Both the position numbers and the translations under genes were made by a program. A DNA stretch of 64,000 bases from Candidatus Kaiserbacteria bacterium RIFCSPHIGHO2_02_FULL_49_34. Its GTDB lineage: Bacteria > Patescibacteriota > Minisyncoccia > Phycocordibacterales > UBA918. Below, in pieces: positions 468 through 63,647 of this stretch. The notes under the pieces are model-generated. The model was not told where the DNA came from. It ran no database searches and was given only the letters and a program-made list of their open reading frames with translations. Position 1 is the stretch's first letter; the number at the start of each line of letters is the position of its first letter. The DNA is taken from the NCBI GenBank assembly GCA_001781205.1, contig MFLE01000014.1:26107-90106 (forward strand). The letters are read 5' to 3'.

Positions 468-600
468 GACTCTGGATCCTTACAGGATGACAAAATGAGG
501 GTGTGGCGCCTTAAAGAAAGTGATGGTTAAAATCGATTTTAACCATCACGTAATTTAAAACATACACTCAACTTTTTTCATCCAGGAGGCATCCAGAGTC
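468..600. repeat. Palindromic MITE-like intergenic repeat, family 1, copy A
   Basis: Left end gactCTGGATCCttacaGGATGACAAAA; right end TTTTTTCATCCaggagGcATCCAGAGtc; perfect central palindrome tgatGGTTAAAATCGATTTTAACCatca (521-548). Related copies at 38898-39028 and 44351-44481. Confidence 0.8.
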
Positions 601-10078: not shown

Positions 10079-10747
10079 ATGAAAAAAACACAAAAGAAAG
10101 CAAGTTTATTAAAAATTAGTATTTTCAGTGTACTGTTCTTACTTCTAAGTGCCGCACCTCTCTATTTCATTGCAGAGAAAAGTGTTCGCAATACCATGCA
10201 GACACAAGCAGAAATGTTTGTACAAAAGATAGATACAAGACTTTTTACGTCGCTTACTGGAACACGCGACGATCTTGACACGCCTGCATATAAGGAACTA
10301 AAATCTGCATTCATAACATTGAAAGAACCACATGATAATATTGCGTTTCTTTATACCGCAGGAATCCGCAACGCAGCATACCGAGCAAAAACAGGAGACA
10401 TTCGCGATGAGAAAGAAGTATTTTTCTACCTCGACAGTGAACCTGAAGACTCGTACGATATCTCCCTCCCTGGCGATATTTACGATGATGCGAGCAGAGC
10501 GCTGTATAACTTATTTGAAACAGGAGAACCATACATTGTAGGACCAGAAACCGATGCATGGGGTACCTGGGTAAGTGTACTCTTACCTATTGGCGGCGAT
10601 ACGCTTGAAACACGTATAGCGTTTGGGGTTGATTACCACGCAGAAACATACACTCGTACGGTGCTTTGGCATCTCTTCAAACTTATGAGTATTCCTCTCC
10701 TCATTCTTTGTATCGGACTCGGTATCTATTGGCGTAAGAAAAAATAA
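10079..10747 (+). CDS. Hypothetical TM-periplasmic domain-TM protein
   Basis: N- and C-terminal hydrophobic helices flank a ~150-aa domain; 3 nt downstream of the previous gene. Confidence 0.45.
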   Translation: MKKTQKKASLLKISIFSVLFLLLSAAPLYFIAEKSVRNTMQTQAEMFVQKIDTRLFTSLTGTRDDLDTPAYKELKSAFITLKEPHDNIAFLYTAGIRNAAYRAKTGDIRDEKEVFFYLDSEPEDSYDISLPGDIYDDASRALYNLFETGEPYIVGPETDAWGTWVSVLLPIGGDTLETRIAFGVDYHAETYTRTVLWHLFKLMSIPLLILCIGLGIYWRKKK

Positions 10748-15015: not shown

Positions 15016-15807
15016 ATGTTCACCTACACATTTTTAGAACACGCGATTCTCGCCTCCCTCATTACCGCCATTGTTGCGCCAACCATTGGTTTCTTTCTCG
15101 TACTCCGACGCCAAGCACTTATGGCAGACACGCTTGCACACGTCTCACTTGCCGGTGTTGCCGCTGGTTTTCTTCTTGGTTTTAACCCACTTATTACCGC
15201 ACTTTTCGTCACAACTGGTAGTTCTCTCGCCATTGAACACCTGCGTGCCCGTCGCGTTGCTAGCGAATGGGCACTTGCGCTTTTCCTCTACGGATCACTC
15301 GCTGTCGCCATCATTCTCTTCTCGCTCGGCAAAAACGTCGGCAGTAGAGTAACCTCCTTCCTCTTCGGGAATCTTCTGACCGTCACGGAGAATGATCTCT
15401 TCTTTATGCTCACGCTCGGCGGCATCGTTATTGCAACCGTTGCTGTCTTCTGGAAACCCCTTCTCACCATCACCTTTGACGAAACCTTCGCTCACACCAT
15501 CAACCTCCCTGTCCGTCGTCTCACCACACTCCTTGCCGCACTCACCGCCGCCGTCATCACACTCTCTATCCCTACGCTCGGTGTTCTCCTTATCGGCGCC
15601 ATGATCTCAATCCCCGTCATCGCCGCCCTCCAGCTCCGCGCAAGCGCTGTCACCACTCTCTTTGCTGCAATCGCCATCGCCCTCATCAGCACCCTCTTCG
15701 GCCTCGCCTCCTCCCTCATGCTCAACATCGCCCCCGCCGGCACCATCGTCCTCACACTCATTCTAACTACCCTTCTCATCCGCCTCAGTCTCAGTATAAA
15801 AAAATAG
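15016..15807 (+). CDS. znuB: Zinc ABC transporter permease (ABC-3 family)
   Basis: Polytopic membrane protein immediately downstream of znuC. Confidence 0.8.
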   Translation: MFTYTFLEHAILASLITAIVAPTIGFFLVLRRQALMADTLAHVSLAGVAAGFLLGFNPLITALFVTTGSSLAIEHLRARRVASEWALALFLYGSLAVAIILFSLGKNVGSRVTSFLFGNLLTVTENDLFFMLTLGGIVIATVAVFWKPLLTITFDETFAHTINLPVRRLTTLLAALTAAVITLSIPTLGVLLIGAMISIPVIAALQLRASAVTTLFAAIAIALISTLFGLASSLMLNIAPAGTIVLTLILTTLLIRLSLSIKK

Positions 15808-31191: not shown

Positions 31192-31591
31192 GGGGATGAC
31201 AGGCTTTGACGGTTACGGTCCGTGCGAATGGCGCGTGTCGAAGATGGTGTTGTGCTTCGTAAAAACACACCAACCCTTAATTGCAAAAGCAATCAAGAGT
31301 CCTTACGCTCCAGCGTACGGATACGCATACGCTGCATAGGTTGAGCCGTTAGGCTCCCTCGCACGTTGCGCGTTACGCTTCGTTCGTCATATCTCGAAGC
31401 AGTGGCGTTATATCGATATGACTCGGCAGGAGCACGGCGTTCTACGCGCTCCACTTAAAAAGCAAGAACTGCACTTCGCCTTCTCGTTCACTCTCTCGAA
31501 AGCGAAGTTAAGCCCCAAGAGTGTCCTACACACGTAGACACCCTCGCACACCATAATTCGGACGAGAGTTCAATTCTCTCCATCTCCACCA
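31192..31591 (+). ncRNA. ssrA: tmRNA (SsrA)
   Basis: 5' GGGGATG pairs with 3' CATCTCC-ACCA (the G3:U wobble alanine identity element is present); T-arm-like gagagttcaattctctc. Internal tag reading frame ...SPYAPAYGYAYAA followed by TAG (ending near 31347). smpB lies 1.6 kb upstream. Confidence 0.8.
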
Positions 31592-37920: not shown

Positions 37921-38073
37921 GTGCGCAGTATACCACCAGACACCAAAATCAGTGAGATTCAAAAAAACCGCGAGCGCTATCTCGTGGTTTTTTAGAACAC
38001 TATTCAGAACAATCTAATTCTTTTAAAATTTACTTCAACCAGTGCAGATGGACCAATTTTGAAAGAATTAGGA

Positions 38074-38727: not shown

Positions 38728-38771
38728 AAATATAGATTAATTAATAGTTGCCAGTTCGCGGCAATACAAAG

Positions 38772-38809
38772 AGTATACTACACCTTTCTAAAAATAACCT
38801 GTGGATAAC
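38772..38809 (-). promoter_or_regulatory. Pilin promoter carrying the shared upstream motif
   Basis: On the coding strand: GTTATCCAC, 23 nt, TATACT (plus-strand positions 38801-38809 and 38772-38777), ~45-nt leader. Confidence 0.5.
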
Positions 38810-38897
38810 GCCTTTAGCTGAGAAATTAAACGTAACACTACTGGGAGGTTTCTATTTTTCAGGACAACAAAAGAACAATAGTGAACACTGCTTAGCA

Positions 38898-39028
38898 GCC
38901 TGGATCCCGTCAGGATGACAAAAGTTTGATGCAATGTTTAAAATTAATGAATGGTTAAAATCGATTTTAACCATTCATTAATTTTAAACCACATTCCCTC
39001 CTTTTGTCATCCTGACGGGATCCAGCGC
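38898..39028. repeat. Palindromic MITE-like repeat, family 1, copy C
   Basis: gCCTGGATCCcgtcaGGATGACAAAAg ... cTTTTGTCATCCtgacgGGATCCAGc, with a 50-bp perfect central palindrome ttaaaattaatgaatGGTTAAAATCGATTTTAACCattcattaattttaa. Confidence 0.85.
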
Positions 39029-39097
39029 TAGGGCAAGAGGTGAGATAGCTCTCCATATGTTAGATTCATAATTCTCTAGAATTGTTACATTAATTTC

Positions 39098-40564
39098 TTG
39101 AGGTCAGAAGATATCCACACATCGTTTTTTCGAAATGACGGTATACTAGTCGTGATGAGTTTCTTTGCGCACTTTATACGAGACGAACGGATTACCGCAC
39201 TCCACATTGCAGAAGACGCAGTGTCTGCACTTTCATTTACGCATACCACAAAACAGCTCAGTGCTATCCGCATCACGCGCATCCCCCTTGCCGCAGGCGT
39301 AATTATCGAAGGTCGCGTCGCAGACCCGACGGCACTCTCTCGCGTCTTGCGCGACCTTCGTATCAAAAACAAGGCATACCGCCACGTTGTTGTCGCGCTT
39401 CCGCATGCGGCAATTTTCACCAAAGCAGTTATCTTTCCCGAAACACTCGACGCAGAAAATGACGCCGCACGCCTCCTTGAAACAGCAAACCTTTCACTTG
39501 AGTGGAATATCCCCTTCCATCCTAACGAACGCTTCGCCGATGTTGATATCCTCCATGAACCAGTCTCAGGCATGCATATTCATGCCATTGCAGCCGAACA
39601 TGCCACCCCCTATATTACCGCACTCGAAAACGCCGGCTTCAAACTTGTTGCCCTCGAATCTGAACACGACGCTATTGCACGTGCCGCAGAGCGGGGTGCA
39701 CACGTCATCACGTCCTTTACCAGTCCCACCTACGAAAATATCCTTGCCTGCCGCGACGGCTTTGCCCTCCTCTCAAGTACTCACGCACTGGGCGCATTCC
39801 CCACAAAAACCGCACGAACAAATGCAGTGAAGCGTGCCGCAGAATTTGTCGCATCACGGTTTGGCAAGCGTCCGGTGGTTAAGGTCTTCGAGAAACTCCC
39901 CCTTCTCGAAGAAGTGAAAAAGATTATCGATGCTCGCAACGATATCTCACTCATACCACTCCTTGGTGTCGCACTCCGTGCACGTACCGCACGCCGCGAC
40001 GATGTCGCTGCAAGCCTCCTCCCTATCGGCACGGAAGAAGCCTACGAATACCAAAAACTCGAAGCATTCATCGGCGGACTTGGCACACTTACCCTCCTCA
40101 CCGCACTCATCATTACCGGCGCCGCAATCTCTGCATGGTACGGTGTCCGTACACAGCTCGCGACAATTCCTCGAGGCGACCTCTTCACCGAAACATTCTC
40201 AGTCGACACCGCACTTACGGAAGAGCGTGCAAACTACGAACGATGGAGCGCGGTTATTGCCACCGTTGGCCCCCTTGCAACCGAAGAAACTTCCTTCGCA
40301 CGCATGACCGCCTTCATTCGAACATACGCCATCAGCGGCATCTCAATCCGTGATGTATCTGCCGACGCAACCACCGTTCGTCTTGGCGGCGTCGCTCGTA
40401 GTCGAACCCACCTCAACACATTCCGCGACGCGCTCAAGAGTGCGGAAGAAGTCGCAACCGTAGAACTCCCTATTACCGACGCCGAACTCCGCGGTGACAT
40501 CCCGTTCCAAATGACCATTACCTTTAAGCCTGCTGTTTGGCAATCCTGGGTACCCAATAACTAA
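39098..40564 (+). CDS. PilM-PilN fusion protein (actin-like pilus assembly ATPase-fold domain, TM, periplasmic PilN-like domain)
   Basis: The N-terminal ~320 aa resembles PilM; TM GLGTLTLLTALIITGAAISAWY; C-terminal ~140 aa. Start could be an internal Met near 39155. Confidence 0.6.
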   Translation: MRSEDIHTSFFRNDGILVVMSFFAHFIRDERITALHIAEDAVSALSFTHTTKQLSAIRITRIPLAAGVIIEGRVADPTALSRVLRDLRIKNKAYRHVVVALPHAAIFTKAVIFPETLDAENDAARLLETANLSLEWNIPFHPNERFADVDILHEPVSGMHIHAIAAEHATPYITALENAGFKLVALESEHDAIARAAERGAHVITSFTSPTYENILACRDGFALLSSTHALGAFPTKTARTNAVKRAAEFVASRFGKRPVVKVFEKLPLLEEVKKIIDARNDISLIPLLGVALRARTARRDDVAASLLPIGTEEAYEYQKLEAFIGGLGTLTLLTALIITGAAISAWYGVRTQLATIPRGDLFTETFSVDTALTEERANYERWSAVIATVGPLATEETSFARMTAFIRTYAISGISIRDVSADATTVRLGGVARSRTHLNTFRDALKSAEEVATVELPITDAELRGDIPFQMTITFKPAVWQSWVPNN

Positions 40565-40565
40565 C

Positions 40566-40685
40566 TTCTTTCAAAATGGGATGAAATTGCGTTGGTTGGA
40601 GCAAAATTTTGACGGAGCCGTACCCAATGTACGGTGAGGGCAAAATTTTGCGAAACCAATGCAAGTTTGCCCATTTTGAAAGAAG
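40566..40685. repeat. MITE-like repeat, family 2, copy 1 (perfect 16-bp terminal inverted repeats)
   Basis: cttctttcaaaatggg ... cccattttgaaagaag; internal conserved core gccGTACCcaatGTACggtga flanked by the self-complementary gcaaaattttg/caaaattttgc. Confidence 0.8.
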
Positions 40686-40699
40686 CATTAAAGCAAAAT

Positions 40700-43045: not shown

Positions 43046-44320
43046 CTACTGAATGGTACCGAGGTATGGAATATTGAGAATCTTGTTGCTGTGGGGGATT
43101 TTAAGGAGTGGGGTGCCGGTGTCTTCTTCGGAACGTGTTTGCTTCGGACGGAGACTTGAGGCTCGCTCGAGGGGGAGTCCGCCGCTTCGATACATGAGTG
43201 TGTCGACAACGTCATTGAGCGTGTTGCGTTTTTCTTCAGTTTCGTCTTCCGCAGTTGTGAAGAGTTTTTGTTGCGCGGCACTCTCAAGCATTCCGTGTGT
43301 GCCGACATAGACGGCGCGGTAGCGGACGCCTTTGCGATACATGGCGTGCAAAGCTTCCTCAGCAAGCTGCATAATAGTGCCCGGATCATTTGTTGGTGAT
43401 GGACACTTTATGGTGTAAGTAACAAGTGTATGAATGTCAGGAAATGCTTTGTAGCCAATGGTTACCGCGTGCATACGAGCGTGTTGCGTGCGGAGTTTTC
43501 GGCACACGCGCTCAATGTTGCGCGAAAATTCAGTGAGGAGCGGAGCGAATGCAATGATTGGCTCCATGAATGCTTGGATACTACTGACGCTCTGCGCATT
43601 TTCTCTTGCTTCAATACCTCGCACCGAAGTGCCGCGGAGTTCATAGGCGAGTTCGACAAGTGGCTTATTGTAACGGCGTTCTATTTCGTGCGGTGCAAGC
43701 GCGAGGAGGTTGCCGATAGTAAGGATGCCCTGTTCTGCAAGTTTTTGTTCGGTCCGGCCGCCGATGCCGGGAACTTTTCGTAGCGACACACTATTGAGCA
43801 TGTCAAGATTTTCTGGTGTGACTATCGTAAGTCCTCGCGGCTTTTTAAAACCTGATGCAATTTTCGCAATCGTCATTGTTGGTCCAACACCAATGGAAAT
43901 GGTGAGTCCAAGTTTTATACAAAGTTCTTCTTGCAGTGCTTTCGCAAAACCTCGCACATCACTCCACGTAGTAACGCTCGACACATCCGCAAAACATTCA
44001 TCGATCGAACCTTCAGAGATATCTGATACATATCGCCGTACGATGCTTTTCATACGTTCTGAAAAAAGCTCATACTTACGATAGTCCGACGCAAGGAGTG
44101 CAACCTGCGGAAACTCGCGACTCAGTGCCGTCTGACTCATTGGACGCCGCACCCCGAGCGCCTTTGCCTCATACGAAATAGCCGTCACAATACCGCGCTC
44201 ACGCCCCACCGCAATCGGTTTCCCACGCCACTGCATATTGGTTGCCTGTTCACACGACGCAAAAAACGCATCGCCGTCGACGTGCATGAAAATCTTTGCG
44301 TTTTTTTGTGAGAATTGCAT
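43046..44320 (-). CDS. Y-family DNA polymerase (DinB/UmuC-like)
   Basis: MHVDGDAFFASCEQ...; typical Y-family palm, fingers and little-finger order. Confidence 0.85.
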   Translation of the reverse strand: MQFSQKNAKIFMHVDGDAFFASCEQATNMQWRGKPIAVGRERGIVTAISYEAKALGVRRPMSQTALSREFPQVALLASDYRKYELFSERMKSIVRRYVSDISEGSIDECFADVSSVTTWSDVRGFAKALQEELCIKLGLTISIGVGPTMTIAKIASGFKKPRGLTIVTPENLDMLNSVSLRKVPGIGGRTEQKLAEQGILTIGNLLALAPHEIERRYNKPLVELAYELRGTSVRGIEARENAQSVSSIQAFMEPIIAFAPLLTEFSRNIERVCRKLRTQHARMHAVTIGYKAFPDIHTLVTYTIKCPSPTNDPGTIMQLAEEALHAMYRKGVRYRAVYVGTHGMLESAAQQKLFTTAEDETEEKRNTLNDVVDTLMYRSGGLPLERASSLRPKQTRSEEDTGTPLLKIPHSNKILNIPYLGTIQ

Positions 44321-44350
44321 GGGTTATATACTCGAGGCTATTGCCCTAAC

Positions 44351-44481
44351 GCTGGATCCCTCTTGGATGACAAATGTTAGGTGCTATGTTCAAAAGAGAT
44401 TTATGGTTAAAATCGATTTTAAACTCTTATTAATTTAGAGCACACTACCCAAAATTTGTCATCCAGGAGGGATCCGGAGTC
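44351..44481. repeat. Palindromic MITE-like repeat, family 1, copy D (inside the umuD-like/polymerase operon)
   Basis: gCTGGATCCctcttGGATGACAAAtg ... aaaTTTGTCATCCaggagGGATCCgGAGtc; core ttatGGTTAAAATCGATTTTAAac. Confidence 0.8.
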
Positions 44482-44496
44482 ACAGCGAAAAACTTG

Positions 44497-44871
44497 TTAG
44501 TTCTCATACTTCCGAATACAAGCAATTACCTTACCTTCTATATTCAAAGACTCCTGCGGGATAAGCTTCGGATACATCTCATTCGCTGCTTCCAGATACT
44601 GTTCGCCTCGACCGTTCTTACGTAGAAATCGTACCACATAGTCGCCATCAATTTCTGCCACCACAATATCCCCTGCGCGCACACTTCGCGTGCGCTCAAT
44701 TAAAAGATAATCACCCGACGCAACCTGCGTATCAAGAAGCGCCTCACCTTCCATTCTCATAAGATACGTCGCATCTGGATCAGCCAAAAGCCACGCCTCA
44801 AGCGTCCCCACATCACTCCCATCATCAACAGGTGAACCAAAACCAGCCATGGAGCAAGTATACCACATCAA
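44497..44871 (-). CDS. S24 peptidase-domain protein (UmuD-like, no HTH)
   Basis: A Ser-Lys dyad context (CSMAGFGSP...RFLRKNG) and the LexA/UmuD C-terminal domain pattern; located upstream of the Y-family polymerase. Confidence 0.65.
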   Translation of the reverse strand: MMWYTCSMAGFGSPVDDGSDVGTLEAWLLADPDATYLMRMEGEALLDTQVASGDYLLIERTRSVRAGDIVVAEIDGDYVVRFLRKNGRGEQYLEAANEMYPKLIPQESLNIEGKVIACIRKYEN

Positions 44872-44910: not shown

Positions 44911-46752
44911 TTAATCAGAGGTCATGACACGGCTGCCTGCAGATCCATTACAGAAATTATTTCCAACACCACAGGAGACAGCAACGAATATACCTCCACC
45001 ATATGTGACGCCCCTCCAGTTATTTTGAGCGGCTGAGGTTCGAGATGTCCAAGTGATGCCGTCTGGTGAAGTCATGACACGGTTGCCAGCACCAGTACGT
45101 GACACTGCAACAAAGAGGTCTTGTCCATAGGTGACGGATTGCCAGCCATTGTCTGGAGCACTTGTGCTAGTTGTCCAAGTGATGCCGTCTGGTGAAGTCA
45201 TGACACGGTTGCCAGCACCCGTAACAGCAACTGCGACAAAGAGTCCGTTGCCGTAGGTGACGCCGACCCAGCTATTATCTGCAGCACTGGTTTGAGTTGT
45301 CCAGGTGATGCCGTCGGGTGAGGTCATGACGCGATCGCCGGTACCGTTACTAGACACTGCGACAAAGAGTCCGTTGCCGTAGGTGACGGAGCTCCATTGG
45401 TTAGTTGTAGCACTGGTACGGGAAGTCCAAGTGATGCCGTCGGGTGAGGTCATAACACTGTTCACCGTACTGTCGTTAGACACTGCGACAAAGAGTCCGT
45501 TGCCGTAGGTGACGCCGACCCAGCTATTATCTGCAGCACTGGTTTGAGTTGTCCAGGTGATGCCGTCGGGTGAAGTCATGACGCGATCGCCAATACCATT
45601 CCCTGCAACGGCGACGAAGAGACCATTGCCATAGGTGACGGAGCCCCAGGCATTATCTGCAGCGCTGGTTTGGGATGTCCAGGTGATGCCGTCAGGTGAG
45701 GTCATGACGCGGTTGCCGAAGCCTGTGCTTGCAACTGCGACAAAGAGTCCGTTGCCGTAGGTGACAGAGTTCCAGAAGTTATCCGCAGCGGAGACACGAG
45801 ATGTCCACTCAACGCCTGCTTGCGCCTTCGCAATCACCGCAATGGTGTTTGCTCCTGTGCAGGTACCCTTCACTCCACTTGCAGGAATAGCAATGTTCCA
45901 GTAAAGGTTTGCGGAGAGCTCGTTAGATTCGTCGGTACGGAGGAGGATGTTTCGTTTTGCTGAAGCAGGAGTATCGGTAAGAACAATTGATGTGGCATGA
46001 TCGACATCGGTGAGCGCCCACGCCTGTGTTGAAGTAGCGAGTGTACCGAGTGCGCTGCAGCCCATATTCGAACCAGAGAGCTGCACATCAGCCTTTGTGT
46101 TGCCTCGCTGTGTGATGACTGTCTCTACGTTTGTGGTTGATGATGAAACTTCACCAAGTGAACGAGTGCCGTAATCAATAACATCGGGGAGATTGAGAGC
46201 AAGAAGTGAGTTAACTTCTACTGTTGCAGAAAGAGCACCTTGTGTTGACGCAAAATCTTGAACAGTAACATATGCGGTCCAACTATCGCTTGTATAGGCA
46301 CTTGCTGCATCAGTTGCATCAATCCAGTAAGCAAGCGGCACTTCACAGTTGTAGGCGATTTCTGTGTCGGAGCCTTCGGAGTAGTTCGTGGTACAAGAAT
46401 TAATTACGTAGCAGTCGTTGTTGTCGGCGGCGCAGGTGTTGGTACTGCTTGTTTTGTGGAAGACAAGAGCGAGTGTTGATGAAGCAATATCGTTTTCTCC
46501 GTTTGCATCAGAGATTTGTCCGTTGATGTGAATAGTTCTGTCAGTACCGACGTTCGGGAGAATACCTGAGCTTGTTAAATCATCTGTGCCGTACGCGGTT
46601 GTGGCGATACGGATGGTGTCGACGGTTGGTGCAACGTTAATAATTTCTGCAGTGGTTGCGACATCGGCTGCGCCAGTGTAGCGGATGATGATTCCTACGA
46701 TGAGGAGGAATGCGACGACAATCAAGGTGCCGAATATTTTTATATTTGTCAT
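44911..46752 (-). CDS. Membrane-anchored surface protein with 8 tandem ~38-aa Asp-box-like (SPDGITWT) repeats, paralog A
   Basis: N-terminal MTNIKIFGTLIVVAFLLIVGIIIRYTGA anchor; ~300-aa Thr/Ser-rich domain; repeats GNRVMTSPDGITWTsrTSAadNnWxSVTYGNGLFVAVs. The track ORF runs to 46824. Confidence 0.7.
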   Translation of the reverse strand: MTNIKIFGTLIVVAFLLIVGIIIRYTGAADVATTAEIINVAPTVDTIRIATTAYGTDDLTSSGILPNVGTDRTIHINGQISDANGENDIASSTLALVFHKTSSTNTCAADNNDCYVINSCTTNYSEGSDTEIAYNCEVPLAYWIDATDAASAYTSDSWTAYVTVQDFASTQGALSATVEVNSLLALNLPDVIDYGTRSLGEVSSSTTNVETVITQRGNTKADVQLSGSNMGCSALGTLATSTQAWALTDVDHATSIVLTDTPASAKRNILLRTDESNELSANLYWNIAIPASGVKGTCTGANTIAVIAKAQAGVEWTSRVSAADNFWNSVTYGNGLFVAVASTGFGNRVMTSPDGITWTSQTSAADNAWGSVTYGNGLFVAVAGNGIGDRVMTSPDGITWTTQTSAADNSWVGVTYGNGLFVAVSNDSTVNSVMTSPDGITWTSRTSATTNQWSSVTYGNGLFVAVSSNGTGDRVMTSPDGITWTTQTSAADNSWVGVTYGNGLFVAVAVTGAGNRVMTSPDGITWTTSTSAPDNGWQSVTYGQDLFVAVSRTGAGNRVMTSPDGITWTSRTSAAQNNWRGVTYGGGIFVAVSCGVGNNFCNGSAGSRVMTSD

Positions 46753-46760
46753 ATGTGCAT

Positions 46761-46797
46761 AGTATACCTTGATTTGTGAAATCAGATAGTGGACAAC
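46761..46797 (-). promoter_or_regulatory. Promoter of paralog A carrying the shared motif
   Basis: On the coding strand: GTTGTCCAC, 22 nt, TATACT, 8 nt, ATG. Confidence 0.5.
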
Positions 46798-46837
46798 CTC
46801 ACAGGAACTAGCACTACCATTCATGTGTATTAAAAAA

Positions 46838-46872: not shown

Positions 46873-48693
46873 TTAATCAGAGGTCATGACGCGGTTGCCG
46901 GTGCCGTTATATGAAACTGCAACAAAGAGTCCGTTATTGTAGGTAACTGAGACCCAACCATTATTTGCGGCGCTGGTACGAGACGTCCAAGTGATGCCGT
47001 CAGGCGAGGTCATGACGCGGTTGCCGGTGCCAGTGTTAGAAACTGCTACGAAGAGGCCGTCGCCGTAGGTAACTGAATTCCAGTTATTGGCAGCAGCACT
47101 CGTGCGGGAGGTCCAAGTGATGCCGTCAGGCGAGGTCATGACGGTATCATTCGTGCCCGTGAAATCAGAAACTGCAACAAAGAGTCCGTTGCCGTAGGTG
47201 ACACTGAGCCAGTTGTTATCTACAGCACTCGTGCGGGAGGTCCAAGTGATGCCGTCTGGTGAAGTCATGACACGGTTACCAGTACCGTTATACGAAACTG
47301 CTACGAAGAGACCGTTGCCGTAGGTGACGGAGCGCCAGTTGATATCTACAGCGTTGACGCGAGACGTCCAAGTGATGCCGTCAGGCGAGGTCATGACGCG
47401 GTTGCCGGTGCCAGAGTCAGAAACTGCTACGAAGAGACCATTACCGTAGGCGACGGAGCGCCAGAAGTTGTCTGCTGCTGAAGTTTGGGATGTCCAAGTG
47501 ATACCGTCTGGTGATGTCATGACGCGGTTACCAGCACCAGAGTCAGAAACTGCTACGAAGAGACCGTTACCGTAGGCGACGGAGTTCCAGCTGTTATTTG
47601 CAGCACTCGTGCGAGACGTCCAAGTGATGCCGTCAGGCGAGGTCATGACGCGGTTGCCGGTGCCAGTGTTAGAAACTGCTACGAAGAGGCCGTCGCCGTA
47701 AGTGACGGAGCGCCAGTTGTTATCTACAGCACTCGTACGAGACGTCCACTCAATACCTGCTTGCAACTTTGCAATCACTGCAATTGTGTTTGCACCAGTA
47801 CATGTCCCCTTCACGCCAGTTGAAGGAATAGCAATGTTCCAGTAAAGGTTTGCGGAGAGCTCGTTAGATTCATCAGTACGAGGTGCAACGTTTCGTTTTG
47901 CAGGAGTGAGTGTTCCTGTAAGTATAGTTGACGAAGCGTGGTTGATATCAGTAAGCGCCCAGGCTTGTGTATTCACAGGTAGCGTACCAAGTATACTACA
48001 GCCCATAACATCACCAGAGACTTGCACATCAGCTCTTGTGTTGCCACGTTGCGTGATGACGGTTTCAATGTTTGTTGTTGATGACGAGACTTCACCAAGT
48101 GAACGAGTGCCATAATCGATAGCATCGGGGAGATTGAGAGCAAGAAGCGAGTTCACCTCGATGGTTGCTTGTAGTGCTCCTGATGTTGAAGTCAAATCAG
48201 CGACGCTGACGTATGCAGTCCAATTGTCACTAGTGAATGCCGACCCTGCATCGGTTGCATCTATCCAGTACGCGAGCGGTACTTCACAGTTGTAGGCAAT
48301 CTGTGTGTCATCGCCGTCGGCGTAATTTGTATTGCAGGTTGTAATGCGATAGCAGTCGTTGTTGTCGGCGGCACACGCACCTGTTGCTGAGGTTTTATGA
48401 AAAACGAGACTGATAGTGCTTGAGGCAATGTCATTTTCTCCGTTTGCGTCGCTCATGACACCATTGATATGAATGGTTCTATCGGTACCTACGTTCGGGA
48501 GAATACCTGAGCTTGTTAAATCATCTGTGCCATACGCAGTGGTTGCAAAACGAATCGTATCAACGGTTGGTGCGGTATTCTGAATTTCTGCAGTTGTTGC
48601 GACATCGGCTGCGCCGGTGTAGCGGATGACGATTCCTACGATGAGGAGGAATGTGACGGCGACGAGTGTGCCGAATATTTTTATATTTGTCAT
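46873..48693 (-). CDS. Membrane-anchored surface protein with 8 tandem Asp-box-like repeats, paralog B
   Basis: Near-identical N-terminus and architecture to paralog A, indicating a tandem duplication. The track ORF runs to 48762. Confidence 0.7.
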   Translation of the reverse strand: MTNIKIFGTLVAVTFLLIVGIVIRYTGAADVATTAEIQNTAPTVDTIRFATTAYGTDDLTSSGILPNVGTDRTIHINGVMSDANGENDIASSTISLVFHKTSATGACAADNNDCYRITTCNTNYADGDDTQIAYNCEVPLAYWIDATDAGSAFTSDNWTAYVSVADLTSTSGALQATIEVNSLLALNLPDAIDYGTRSLGEVSSSTTNIETVITQRGNTRADVQVSGDVMGCSILGTLPVNTQAWALTDINHASSTILTGTLTPAKRNVAPRTDESNELSANLYWNIAIPSTGVKGTCTGANTIAVIAKLQAGIEWTSRTSAVDNNWRSVTYGDGLFVAVSNTGTGNRVMTSPDGITWTSRTSAANNSWNSVAYGNGLFVAVSDSGAGNRVMTSPDGITWTSQTSAADNFWRSVAYGNGLFVAVSDSGTGNRVMTSPDGITWTSRVNAVDINWRSVTYGNGLFVAVSYNGTGNRVMTSPDGITWTSRTSAVDNNWLSVTYGNGLFVAVSDFTGTNDTVMTSPDGITWTSRTSAAANNWNSVTYGDGLFVAVSNTGTGNRVMTSPDGITWTSRTSAANNGWVSVTYNNGLFVAVSYNGTGNRVMTSD

Positions 48694-48701
48694 ATATGCA
48701 T

Positions 48702-48739
48702 AGTATATCTCCACTTTGCGAAAACACGAAGTGGATAAC
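48702..48739 (-). promoter_or_regulatory. Promoter of paralog B carrying the shared motif
   Basis: On the coding strand: GTTATCCAC, 23 nt, TATACT, 8 nt, ATG. Confidence 0.5.
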
Positions 48740-48789
48740 GCTTGGTTTGACAGACTCACCACAAGTCGCTTCTTTCTTCACGGGTACTT

Positions 48790-52632: not shown

Positions 52633-52670
52633 AGTTGTGTTTTAGGAACACGTAATCTAAACCGAGTGTA

Positions 52671-52790
52671 ATTCTTTCAAAATTGAGTGCAGTTGTGCTG
52701 ACTGGAGGGAGCGAGTGACTGAGCCGTACCTAAGTACGGTGAAGAAATGAGTGACTGAAGTCAGTACAAATGTGCCAATTTTGGAAGAAT
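52671..52790. repeat. MITE-like repeat, family 2, copy 2 (abuts the pilB stop codon)
   Basis: attctttcaaaattgag ... ccaattttggaagaat TIRs (14/16 match); core gccGTACCtaaGTACggtga. Confidence 0.75.
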
Positions 52791-54463
52791 TACTCTTGGA
52801 CTACACGTAGGACTTCCTCAATCGTCGTAACCCCCCTCTCGACTTTCTGCAATCCATCTTCAAACATTGTTGTCATACCGCCTTTAATTGCTTGTTTACG
52901 AATGACTGCAGCACCTGTTTGTTTCTGGGCAAGTTCGCGGAGCTCGTCATTCATTGCCATAATTTCAAAGACCGCAACCTGTCCAAGGAACCCACTGCCG
53001 CCACAGACAGAACATCCTTTGCCGCGATATAGAGTTTCGGGAACCGTTTTAATATGGGTATCTCCAAGCGCCTTTTTCTGTGCGGTTATCGCGCGTTTAA
53101 TTTCGGGAGAGATTTTATACGAATAAATACAGGTTGGGCAAATTTTACGTACCAGTCGTTGCGCGACAACCGCATTTATCGTCGACGCAAGCAGGAATGG
53201 CTCGACACCCATATCAACAAGTCGAGGCAGTGCTGACGGCGCGTCGTTGGTGTGGAGTGACGAGAGCACGAGATGTCCGGTAAGCGCAGCATGCACGGCA
53301 ATATCAGCAGTCTCTTCGTCGCGGATTTCTCCCACCATGATAATGTCAGGGTTTTGACGCAAGAGTGAACGGAGTCCGTTAGCAAAGGTAATGCCAGCGC
53401 GCGCGTTGACCTGTGTTTGGTTCACGTGGGGAAATTCATACTCGATAGGATCTTCGATGGTGGTAATATTTACCTTTGGAGAATTAAGTTTATGCAAGAT
53501 AGCATAGAGGGTAGTGGTTTTACCGTGCCCCGTTGGTCCGGTGACCAAAATCATGCCGTGTGGTTTATGTACTTCTGCCTCAAGAAGTGCTTCTTGCACG
53601 GGTGCGAGACCAATGTCGCGGAACGTGATAGGGCGCGATGTTGATCGAAGCAAGCGCATTTCTGCCTTTTCACCATGAAGCACCGGCATAATGTTCACGC
53701 GAATATCAATAGTGCCTGCGGCGTCAGCATTTGCACGGAAACGTCCATCTTGCGGCGCATTATGTTCATCAACTTGGAGGTTGGCGATAACTTTGATACG
53801 TGCAACCAGTGGTGCAGAAAATGATTTCGGAAACGAGGCGATTTCTTGCATAATACCGTCGATACGGGCACGTACTACAAGCATGTTTTCGAGAGGCTCG
53901 ACATGAAGGTCGCTCGCACCAAGTGTAATAGCGTGCTCGAGCAACGCATCGAGTGTTTCAATAATTGACGCACTTTCGCCATCTTGCGCCTCGACTGCAG
54001 CACGATGTGCGTCGAACACAACTCCCTGTGCCGCGCGGTATTTTTTGAGCGCATACGCCACGGATGACATCGTCACCACGGCCGCATTTACCCACTTCCC
54101 TGTCATTGCGCGAACTTCGGCAATGGTATCCGCATCACCCGGGTCAACCATACCGAGCGTCACGGTCGTGTCGTCTTCGGCAGTAATGAATACTCTGTGC
54201 GTTTTAATAAAAGCTTGGGGCAAACGCATGAGCGCGTCGTCCTCTGTCTCGCTTCGCTTTGCATCAAAAATTGGCACTTCGTAGTATGTGGCAAGCACTT
54301 CAGCAAGGTGTGCTTCTGAAATTTTACCCAATGAAATAAGAGTATCAAACGGCGACTTCCCTTGCTTTTTCGCTTCATCACGAGCGAGAGAAAGATCATC
54401 CTTCGTAACAAGTCCCGATGCAATAAAAAGAGAGTCGAATGTTTCTTGAGAAAGGTGCATATG
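52790..54463 (-). CDS. pilB: Type IV pilus assembly ATPase PilB/GspE
   Basis: GSPII_E N-domain; Walker A VTGPTGHGKTTTLYA; Asp/His boxes. Start set to ATG 54463 with TATACT 8 nt upstream. The track ORF runs to 54532. Confidence 0.85.
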   Translation of the reverse strand, partial: HMHLSQETFDSLFIASGLVTKDDLSLARDEAKKQGKSPFDTLISLGKISEAHLAEVLATYYEVPIFDAKRSETEDDALMRLPQAFIKTHRVFITAEDDTTVTLGMVDPGDADTIAEVRAMTGKWVNAAVVTMSSVAYALKKYRAAQGVVFDAHRAAVEAQDGESASIIETLDALLEHAITLGASDLHVEPLENMLVVRARIDGIMQEIASFPKSFSAPLVARIKVIANLQVDEHNAPQDGRFRANADAAGTIDIRVNIMPVLHGEKAEMRLLRSTSRPITFRDIGLAPVQEALLEAEVHKPHGMILVTGPTGHGKTTTLYAILHKLNSPKVNITTIEDPIEYEFPHVNQTQVNARAGITFANGLRSLLRQNPDIIMVGEIRDEETADIAVHAALTGHLVLSSLHTNDAPSALPRLVDMGVEPFLLASTINAVVAQRLVRKICPTCIYSYKISPEIKRAITAQKKALGDTHIKTVPETLYRGKGCSVCGGSGFLGQVAVFEIMAMNDELRELAQKQTGAAVIRKQAIKGGMTTMFEDGLQKVERGVTTIEEVLRVVQE

Positions 54464-63464: not shown

Positions 63465-63489
63465 TATGATTCTCCTTGCAATGTAATTC

Positions 63490-63610
63490 CTCGTTCTAAA
63501 CTGAGTGCAGTTGCGTTGGATGGAAGACATTTTTAACTGTAGGCGTACCCAATGTACGACGGAAGTTAAAAATGTCTGAAGCCAATGCAAATGCGCCAGT
63601 TTTGGGCGAG
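63490..63610. repeat. MITE-like repeat, family 2, copy 3
   Basis: Conserved left end ctaaactGAGTGCAGTTGcgTTGGatGGA; core ggcGTACCcaatGTACgacgg flanked by the complementary 14-bp arms agacatttttaact / agttaaaaatgtct; right end gccagttttgggcgag. Confidence 0.75.
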
Positions 63611-63612
63611 GC

Positions 63613-63647
63613 TCAAAGAAAAGAGGGGTGCCGCTGTGGCACCCCTC
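63613..63647 (-). terminator. Terminator after prkA
   Basis: aggggtgccgctgtggcacccct hairpin followed, on the minus strand, by cttttctttg. Confidence 0.6.

Follow-up and report, generated by a model that had tools for sequence, protein, structure and literature searches.

What are the hairpin-forming repeats that punctuate the intergenic DNA of Candidatus Kaiserbacteria bacterium RIFCSPHIGHO2_02_FULL_49_34, and how did they come to lie where they do? CPR/Patescibacteria genomes are tiny and tightly packed. This one has at least three families of 115–175-nt palindromic inserts, and spacers that measure 7–65 nt in its sisters reach 176–430 nt here. We examined a window of 64,000 nt (contig MFLE01000014.1, positions 26,107–90,106) together with ~17 kb at its ends, ~81 kb in all. 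A sequence-only reading of the window had described three copies of one such palindrome (468–600, 38898–39028 and 44351–44481) as a dispersed, MITE-like element; we refer to these repeats as family 1. Coordinates below are unstranded unless a strand is given.

Copies of family 1 and their empty sites

All three copies are present, and a profile HMM built from the copies, which finds no further match in the window, makes each of them ~10 nt longer on either side than originally described. The first, c1 (462–609), is a 148-nt imperfect palindrome recovered by the profile, by motif search and by single-stranded DNA folding; its left box, CTGGATCCTTACAGGATGACAAA, lies at 472–494, its core at 525–544 and a degenerate right box at 574–596. 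The second, c2 (38891–39038, ~148 nt, delimited by the profile), is a near-perfect palindrome whose centre is perfect over 54 bp (27+27, 38936–38989) rather than the 50 bp first given, and whose 25-nt ends (38900–38924 and 39001–39025) are also perfect. The third, c3 (44342–44489), is again an imperfect palindrome of ~148 nt, with one mismatch in its core. Of the initial picture of near-perfect ~130-bp hairpins, near-perfection holds for c2 but not for c1 or c3, whose arms are ~73–75% complementary, and the unit is ~148 nt in length. Gene annotation agrees with the contexts that had been assigned to the copies, two in divergent promoter regions and one in a UmuD-like/Y-polymerase operon: c1 lies between divergent trhO-like and Gmad2 genes, c2 lies between divergent pilin and pilM genes, and c3 fills the spacer between an S24-peptidase (UmuD-like) gene and dinB, which encodes a Y-family polymerase.

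The 20-mer core GGTTAAAATCGATTTTAACC is exact at 525–544 and 38953–38972 and has one mismatch at 44405–44424; it had zero matches in 100 shuffles. The box pair CTGGATCC-N5-GGATGACAAA, proposed earlier as the shared terminal repeat, occurs six times in the window, once per arm per copy, against 0.09 expected, with two mismatches in the right arm of c1 and one in the right arm of c3. A repeat finder also connects the three copies, both in direct and in inverted alignment. A fourth copy, c4, with a perfect, uninterrupted outer stem of 47 bp, lies ~3.2 kb past the window's right end (L106, 4778–4925), and none occurs in the 8.6 kb on the window's left side. Directly left of the window, an island-like block (L103, 13200–21092) holds a Gp49/HTH toxin–antitoxin pair, RadC, an M10 peptidase and a ~1034-aa Type ISP (MmeI-like) restriction-modification gene, with no family-1 copy among them. 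All copies of the family are intergenic, and each lies upstream of at least one gene start. Proteins of the window have identical matches in groundwater metagenomes from the Rifle aquifer, among JGI as well as ENA assemblies, and because the family-1 copies are the same in these independent assemblies we conclude that they are not assembly artefacts.

Relatives with loci syntenic to the window were located through DinB (84% and 78% identical) and trigger factor (88%), L094 being the relative with the 84% DinB and L102 the one with the 88% trigger factor. At the c3 locus, the spacer between the umuD-like gene and dinB is 176 nt here, 10 nt in L094 and 7 nt in L098. The pilM/pilin spacer that contains c2 is 427 nt here and 134 nt in L098, and the gmad2/trhO spacer that contains c1 is ~400 nt here and 65 nt in L102. 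Downstream of cca, where this genome has c4, L094 has a different sequence without the family. Thus 4/4 loci are empty of family 1 in relatives whose neighbouring proteins are 78–88% identical, and a profile search of ~60 kb of the sister genomes at E ≤ 10 found no family-1 copy. Because the relatives lack the element at all four loci, we regard the copies as insertions rather than as products of segmental duplication; the dispersed, non-coding element originally envisaged is upheld on this point, the syntenic relatives having the flanking genes and no copies. At the c2 and c4 sites, L094 has unrelated palindromes (~15470–15590 and ~725–915), one with 23-nt perfect ends ATAATGAGAACAGGCACATTTAG and the other with ends ATCCTCCTCACGA and a central terminator, which suggests either shared landing sites or palindrome-by-palindrome replacement.

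Relative to the empty sites, 210–313 nt are extra, more than the 150-nt unit accounts for, and the edges of these blocks are not sharp. The block around c1 (388–700, boundaries approximate) adds ~313 nt relative to L102, that around c2 (38810–39109) adds ~300 nt relative to L098 at the pilin/pilM divergent promoter region, and that around c3 (44295–44504) consists of ~210 nt replacing 11–13 nt of L094 and L098. The c3 block encodes the last two codons and the stop of the UmuD-like gene, as well as a possible 12-codon 5′ extension of the annotated dinB. At its annotated start (44285–44320), the dinB product reads MQFSQKNAKIF-MHVDGD..., with 12 extra residues, and the relatives start at MHVDGD; a TATATA −10-like motif sits just 5′ of the annotated start, and both the dinB start in use and its promoter may have changed. 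Solely beside c1 and c2 there is a further module, the A flank: 597–699 on the + strand matches the reverse complement of 38821–38893 at 89% identity across 73 nt, its partner being 38797–38903 on the − strand, and this identity is higher than that of the adjoining hairpins (67%). A small ORF following AGGAGG in the A flank was discarded, the c2 version having no start codon.

Two expectations that come with the MITE reading fared less well. No direct target-site duplication is visible at any of the six copies (c1–c4 and the two in other genomes described below), whether in the flanks or, for c1–c4, in the filled/empty pairs; isolated candidates are limited to TATC at c2 and GA at c4. Nor did the search for a transposase with matching TIRs yield one: Pfam annotations include no transposase or recombinase in the window and the ~17 kb at its ends, and no IS or larger element with family-1 ends occurs in the ~81 kb reached. 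Insertion at the dyad of an existing palindrome was rejected as a rule, being true of c2 but not of c1 or c3, and an outer motif flanking c2, AGAAATTAA-N-GTAACA, considered as the TIR of a larger element, is repeated nowhere else.

Several other features lie near these loci. Two DnaA-box-like sites (consensus TTATCCACA) form an inverted pair (38800–38808 and 39111–39119) that brackets the c2 insertion, and both boxes are perfect in L094. Four DnaA boxes fall within ~110 nt at ~5420–5530 of L106, ~2.6 kb past the right end and near the cumulative GC skew minimum; this cluster is a candidate oriC, ~500 nt from c4. The trhO-like, gmad2 and pilM genes have TATAxT-type −10 motifs 6–8 nt before the ATG and no Shine–Dalgarno sequence (~340–350, ~700–730, ~38730–38790 and ~39140–39160), and the conservation of these motifs in relatives suggests that the transcripts are leaderless. 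Tandem paralogous membrane-anchored proteins of 637 and ~606 aa, going by the gene calls of the matching contigs, are encoded at 44911–46824 and 46873–48762, with 126-nt (42-aa) tandem repeats and a similar terminator after each gene; both paralogues are absent in L094 and L098, where S26 and S24 peptidase genes are adjacent.

Architecture and co-variation of the arms

The family-1 unit of ~150 nt has ~37-nt inverted ends, GCYCTAACG-CTGGATCC-N5-GGATGACAAA, and an invariant apical palindrome, TTAAAATCGATTTTAA. Flank-oriented alignments carry the ends past the terminal repeats first noted, with GCYCTAACG outside CTGGATCC on one side and nGTnAAAGC outside GGATCCAG on the other. The two ends are thus related and slightly asymmetric, the exception being c4, where both are of the GCYCTAACG type and perfectly complementary. 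The invariant blocks CTGGATCC, GGATGACAAA and TTAAAATCGATTTTAA alternate with segments that are near-random between copies, and these variable arm segments are still complementary within each copy. Pairwise identity is 57–73%, with copies from within this genome no closer to one another than copies from different genomes, and the complementarity of the arms within a copy is far higher than the identity between copies. Taken singly, an arm has no more local symmetry than the 4-bp stem of ATCC-N5-GGAT and the self-palindrome GGATCC, and family-1 arms contain no GTAG-like REP head.

As single-stranded DNA the copies are predicted to fold with −30 to −64 kcal/mol, compared with ~−13 kcal/mol for dinucleotide shuffles (z scores of −7.6 to −19), and 0/200 shuffles did as well as any family-1 copy. 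The arms also co-vary. Under the energy-derived structure for five copies, 10 of 46 pairs have changed on both sides, against 5.5 ± 1.6 when shuffled (3/500); under the full dyad for six copies, 18 of 71 pairs have changed on both sides, 78.9% of cells are paired, against 33–46% with the partners slid, and the covariation score is 0.182, against 0.138 ± 0.016 when shuffled (0/500). None of the slid controls reached the observed covariation score. This co-variation points to a hairpin-dependent (REPIN-like) mechanism or to homogenisation of the arms, rather than to simple TIR recognition. RNA fold energies are equal on both strands and a G-U strand bias is absent; this is what would be expected of a DNA-level palindrome, and gives no pointer to a strand-specific RNA.

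The copies also have little to suggest that they encode anything. Over their ~150 nt there are stops in most frames and no consistently open frame, and translated family-1 pseudo-ORFs have no relatives among 5.8 billion proteins. A translation of the palindrome (LDPSWMT...MVKIDFN...FCHPGGIQ), tried as a means of finding copies, gave 27 word-sharing candidates, none of which scored. No terminators are predicted inside c2 or c3, and no promoter or terminator is conserved within the family-1 element; ATGACA-18-TAAAAT, considered as an element promoter, is found only in c2, and its −10-like position is not kept in the other copies.

Distribution and neighbouring palindrome families

Among 185,579 species-representative genomes, the exact core was found in one, Kaiserbacteria RIFCSPLOWO2_12_FULL_50_10, where it lies between dnaB and a hypothetical gene (MFMN01000024.1). 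This exact-core scan undercounts the family, since the cores of c3, c4 and the L022 copy introduced here vary. In metagenomes, the pattern GGATGAMAAA-N25-50-AAAATCGATTTT matched 87 loci, to which a profile search was then applied: L017 and L051, which represent the same copy as L006 (RIFCSPLOWO2_12_FULL_50_10), and L022 are real, and the remaining loci are chance matches. The L022 copy is divergent and adjoins a comF-like gene; in one of its arms the GGATGACAAA box is interrupted by 45 nt of inserted sequence, which includes a small hairpin, TTGGCAC-GAAG-GTGCCAA (10560–10615). The tally is therefore six copies in three Rifle Kaiserbacteria populations, four of them in ~81 kb of this genome, and the second genome's 370-kb contig has one scan-pattern match only. 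With three Rifle populations and so few matches, the family appears to be narrow. Among the fragments compared, the other element-bearing genomes have no orthologues in common with this one. The dispersal first seen within the window does extend to related genomes: at least two other Kaiserbacteria carry copies, and these lie at unrelated loci.

The statement that no described family has this consensus also stands in every collection that we searched. Family 1 is unmatched by blastn in phage and plasmid collections. Viral contigs gave 0 matches to the TIR and core patterns and 27 single matches to a 15-base arm pattern, all of which are chance. At gathering threshold Rfam has no family for the element, the only feature of the window to pass being the tmRNA gene (31192–31591, RF00023, 120 bits), and at a permissive threshold it returns just sub-threshold miRNA-precursor hairpin noise on family 1. 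The searchable literature contained no match to family 1, nor, as far as it was searched, did it describe MITE- or REP-like repeats from CPR/Patescibacteria.

The "rearranged variant" that had been counted with family 1 is present as a palindrome of ~175 nt between the 3′ ends of gmad2 and tig (1194–1369). It is related to family 1, with which it has the boxes GTCATCC and GGATCCAG in common, but it is better described as a separate, older family. Its arms, GTCATCC-TCG-GGAT ... ATACCCGGGGATCCAGGC, surround a 20-nt loop, and one arm contains what looks by eye like a bidirectional terminator: an A-run, ACACGGAC-TAGA-GTCCGTGT (with an N4 loop) and a T-run. The variant is kept at the orthologous tig/gmad2 junction in L102, where the terminator arm is almost unchanged, and for this reason we take it to be older and, apparently, kept by the host for bidirectional termination. 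L022 also has it, at another locus; there a half-variant directly adjoins the family-1 copy. The reuse of the short boxes GTCATCC, GGATCCAG and CCCGGGGATCC as a mosaic, in alternating orientation and with characteristic spacers, gives family 1, the 1194–1369 variant and the L022 composite (10365–10650) an architecture like that of the BIMEs of E. coli. Unlike BIMEs, however, family-1 boxes are unrelated to PU/REP sequences and come with no evidence of gyrase, IHF or Pol I binding.

Hairpin repeats of a different sequence, which we call family 2, are ~125 nt long and lie at 40562–40689, 52669–52794 and 63489–63615, with a fragment at 38025–38069. Their ends are TTCTTTCAAAAT...ATTTTGGAAGAA and their conserved centre is GAGCCGTACC-N-GTACGGTGAG; unlike those of family 1, their profile scores are strongly strand-specific. 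Family 2 is also found in L098, L017, L094, L006 and L103. In the T2SS-E/F spacer, this genome and L098 have orthologous copies (76% identical) and L094 has none; behind pilM, a family-2 copy takes up a spacer of 135 nt where relatives have 9–10 nt. A structured RNA and a further mobile hairpin are both possible readings of family 2.

Origin and consequences of family 1

A non-autonomous mobile element fits family 1 best, because the copies are confined to intergenic DNA, are absent at sister loci and present at unrelated loci elsewhere, and have inverted ends and no coding capacity. Our judgement, held with somewhat more confidence than doubt, is that these are small non-coding insertion-type palindromic repeats (MITE/REPIN-like) belonging to a few Rifle Candidatus Kaiserbacteria. 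The absence of target duplication, a palindrome that spans the entire element, and the co-varying arms make the likeness to REPINs and IS200/IS605 greater than that to a DDE-type MITE.

REPINs combine conserved inverted ends with a less conserved spacer and form a hairpin with frequent compensatory changes (Bertels and Rainey, PMC3116915). Family 1 resembles the REPIN/RAYT systems of Pseudomonas and Enterobacteria in its pair of inverted ends, its co-varying spacer, its single long hairpin, its extragenic location and its lack of target-site duplication, and the higher-order or mosaic arrangements of REPINs have counterparts here in the variant family and the L022 cluster. It differs from them in length (~150 nt, against ~70–110 nt for REPINs), in the invariant 16–20-bp palindrome at the hairpin tip, in arms whose local palindrome is just 4 bp long (ATCC-N5-GGAT) and which lack a GTAG-type head, and in its few copies of 57–73% identity where REPINs form a swarm of near-identical ones. 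No RAYT (Y1_Tnp) gene lies beside any of the six copies or in the ~81 kb reached.

A second set of parallels is provided by the Correia/NEMIS repeats of Neisseria, ERIC/IRU and YPAL of Enterobacteria and Yersinia, RUP of Streptococcus pneumoniae and Nezha of cyanobacteria. These too are imperfect palindromes of 100–170 nt in intergenic and intra-operonic positions, present in some genomes and missing from related ones; as family 1 would be, they are transcribed together with their neighbours into RNA hairpins, and they can alter the termini of adjacent ORFs as well as downstream gene expression. Family 1 differs in having no sequence similarity to them, no TA or other target duplication and no known IS630- or IS5-type parent, and in its host, a CPR bacterium, for which no MITE is described in the literature searched.

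In the mechanism that we propose, insertion would be carried out by an enzyme supplied in trans that recognises the conserved boxes on a folded hairpin or cruciform, probably single-stranded. The style of mobility would be that of REPIN/RAYT and IS200/IS605, leaving no target-site duplication, and the complementarity of the arms would be upheld by selection for foldability or by hairpin-templated repair.

The main rival is that the palindromes, no longer selfishly mobile or never so, are maintained by the host for a function of their own: the boxes would be bound by a protein of the host, or gene regulation (processing or stability of transcripts, insulation of promoters) would depend on the cruciform or RNA hairpin, under per-locus purifying selection with hairpin-templated homogenisation of the arms. 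We consider this unlikely, if still a serious contender, since much of what we see is compatible with it. Across the six copies, which come from three genomes, the boxes do not vary and the intervening segments are near-random, with identity at or below 73%, a pattern that is also expected from locus-by-locus purifying selection, and within-copy arm complementarity is far above between-copy identity. Every copy lies 5′ of at least one gene start, the variant with a terminator is conserved at an orthologous site (trigger factor 88%), so the host can retain such palindromes, and family 2 has an orthologous copy that is 76% conserved between two species. What tells against host function is that four loci are empty in the nearest relatives, so that a "useful" site would have had to be gained or lost four separate times. 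In addition, the neighbouring genes are functionally unrelated, so that a regulon logic is not apparent, no internal promoter or terminator is conserved, and no candidate binding protein was found. One recent burst or neutral decay is not enough to explain boxes, random spacers and near-perfect arms together; the pattern needs either a diverse, possibly horizontally exchanged active pool, or per-copy purifying selection plus hairpin-templated arm homogenisation, as in this rival.

The MITE interpretation of the sequence-only reading, taken in its classical form (an element derived from an IS with the same TIRs and moved by DDE-type cut-and-paste of double-stranded DNA), we regard as improbable. 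Much of its basis holds good: the copies are dispersed, small, ORF-less and intergenic, with TIRs on both arms and insertion polymorphism between genomes. But the six copies show no direct target duplication, including the TA type of Correia, RUP, ERIC and Nezha elements, and neither a parent IS nor its transposase was found in the ~81 kb. The palindrome takes in the entire element, its centre does not vary and its arms co-vary, none of which is needed by a transposase that binds TIRs in double-stranded DNA; and with copies only 57–73% identical, this is not a recent DDE-type MITE burst.

We give similarly little credence to a bolder possibility, a new CPR-specific class of hairpin-dependent mobile DNA in which the tip palindrome would be recognised, the arms homogenised and operons such as umuD-like/dinB rewired, with a non-canonical enzyme at work, and in which insertion would favour landing pads that unrelated palindromes hold in sister genomes, as at two of the four family-1 sites in L094; regeneration of the arms from one another would explain perfection within copies together with divergence between them. 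Finally, we consider it very improbable that family 1 consists of structured non-coding RNA genes or of recombination sites like the attC sites of integrons: the hairpin is long and conserved with compensatory changes, and its size resembles that of chromosomal attC repeats such as VCRs (~130 nt), but no Rfam family matches at threshold (sub-threshold hits being generic miRNA-precursor hairpins), the strands fold equally without G-U bias, the element lacks a promoter and a terminator, c2 and c3 face opposite ways and border housekeeping genes that are syntenic, and free of the repeats, in relatives, and the ends are of the CTGGATCC type, with no GTTRRRY core sites and no integrase nearby.

Family 1 is a genuine repeat family, apparently undescribed, and most likely consists of short, non-coding mobile DNA of a familiar kind. 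As mobile hairpins of this sort, inserted copies would be co-transcribed with their neighbours as long RNA hairpins, and their positions suggest specific effects. Both c1 and c2 would move divergent promoters ~300 nt apart, those at c2 being type IV pilus promoters. The c3 copy separates a translationally coupled UmuD-like/Y-polymerase pair; it would end the tight 7–10-nt coupling of the two genes and rewrite both reading-frame ends, and, if dinB is still co-expressed with the upstream gene, c3 would be transcribed and place a hairpin of ~−60 kcal/mol in the mRNA. More generally, these palindromic repeats may drive expression differences among closely related, co-occurring, uncultured populations, and they may serve as strain markers and cause metagenome assembly breaks. 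The identity of the mobilising enzyme would tell whether REPIN/RAYT-like systems occur outside the well-studied phyla.
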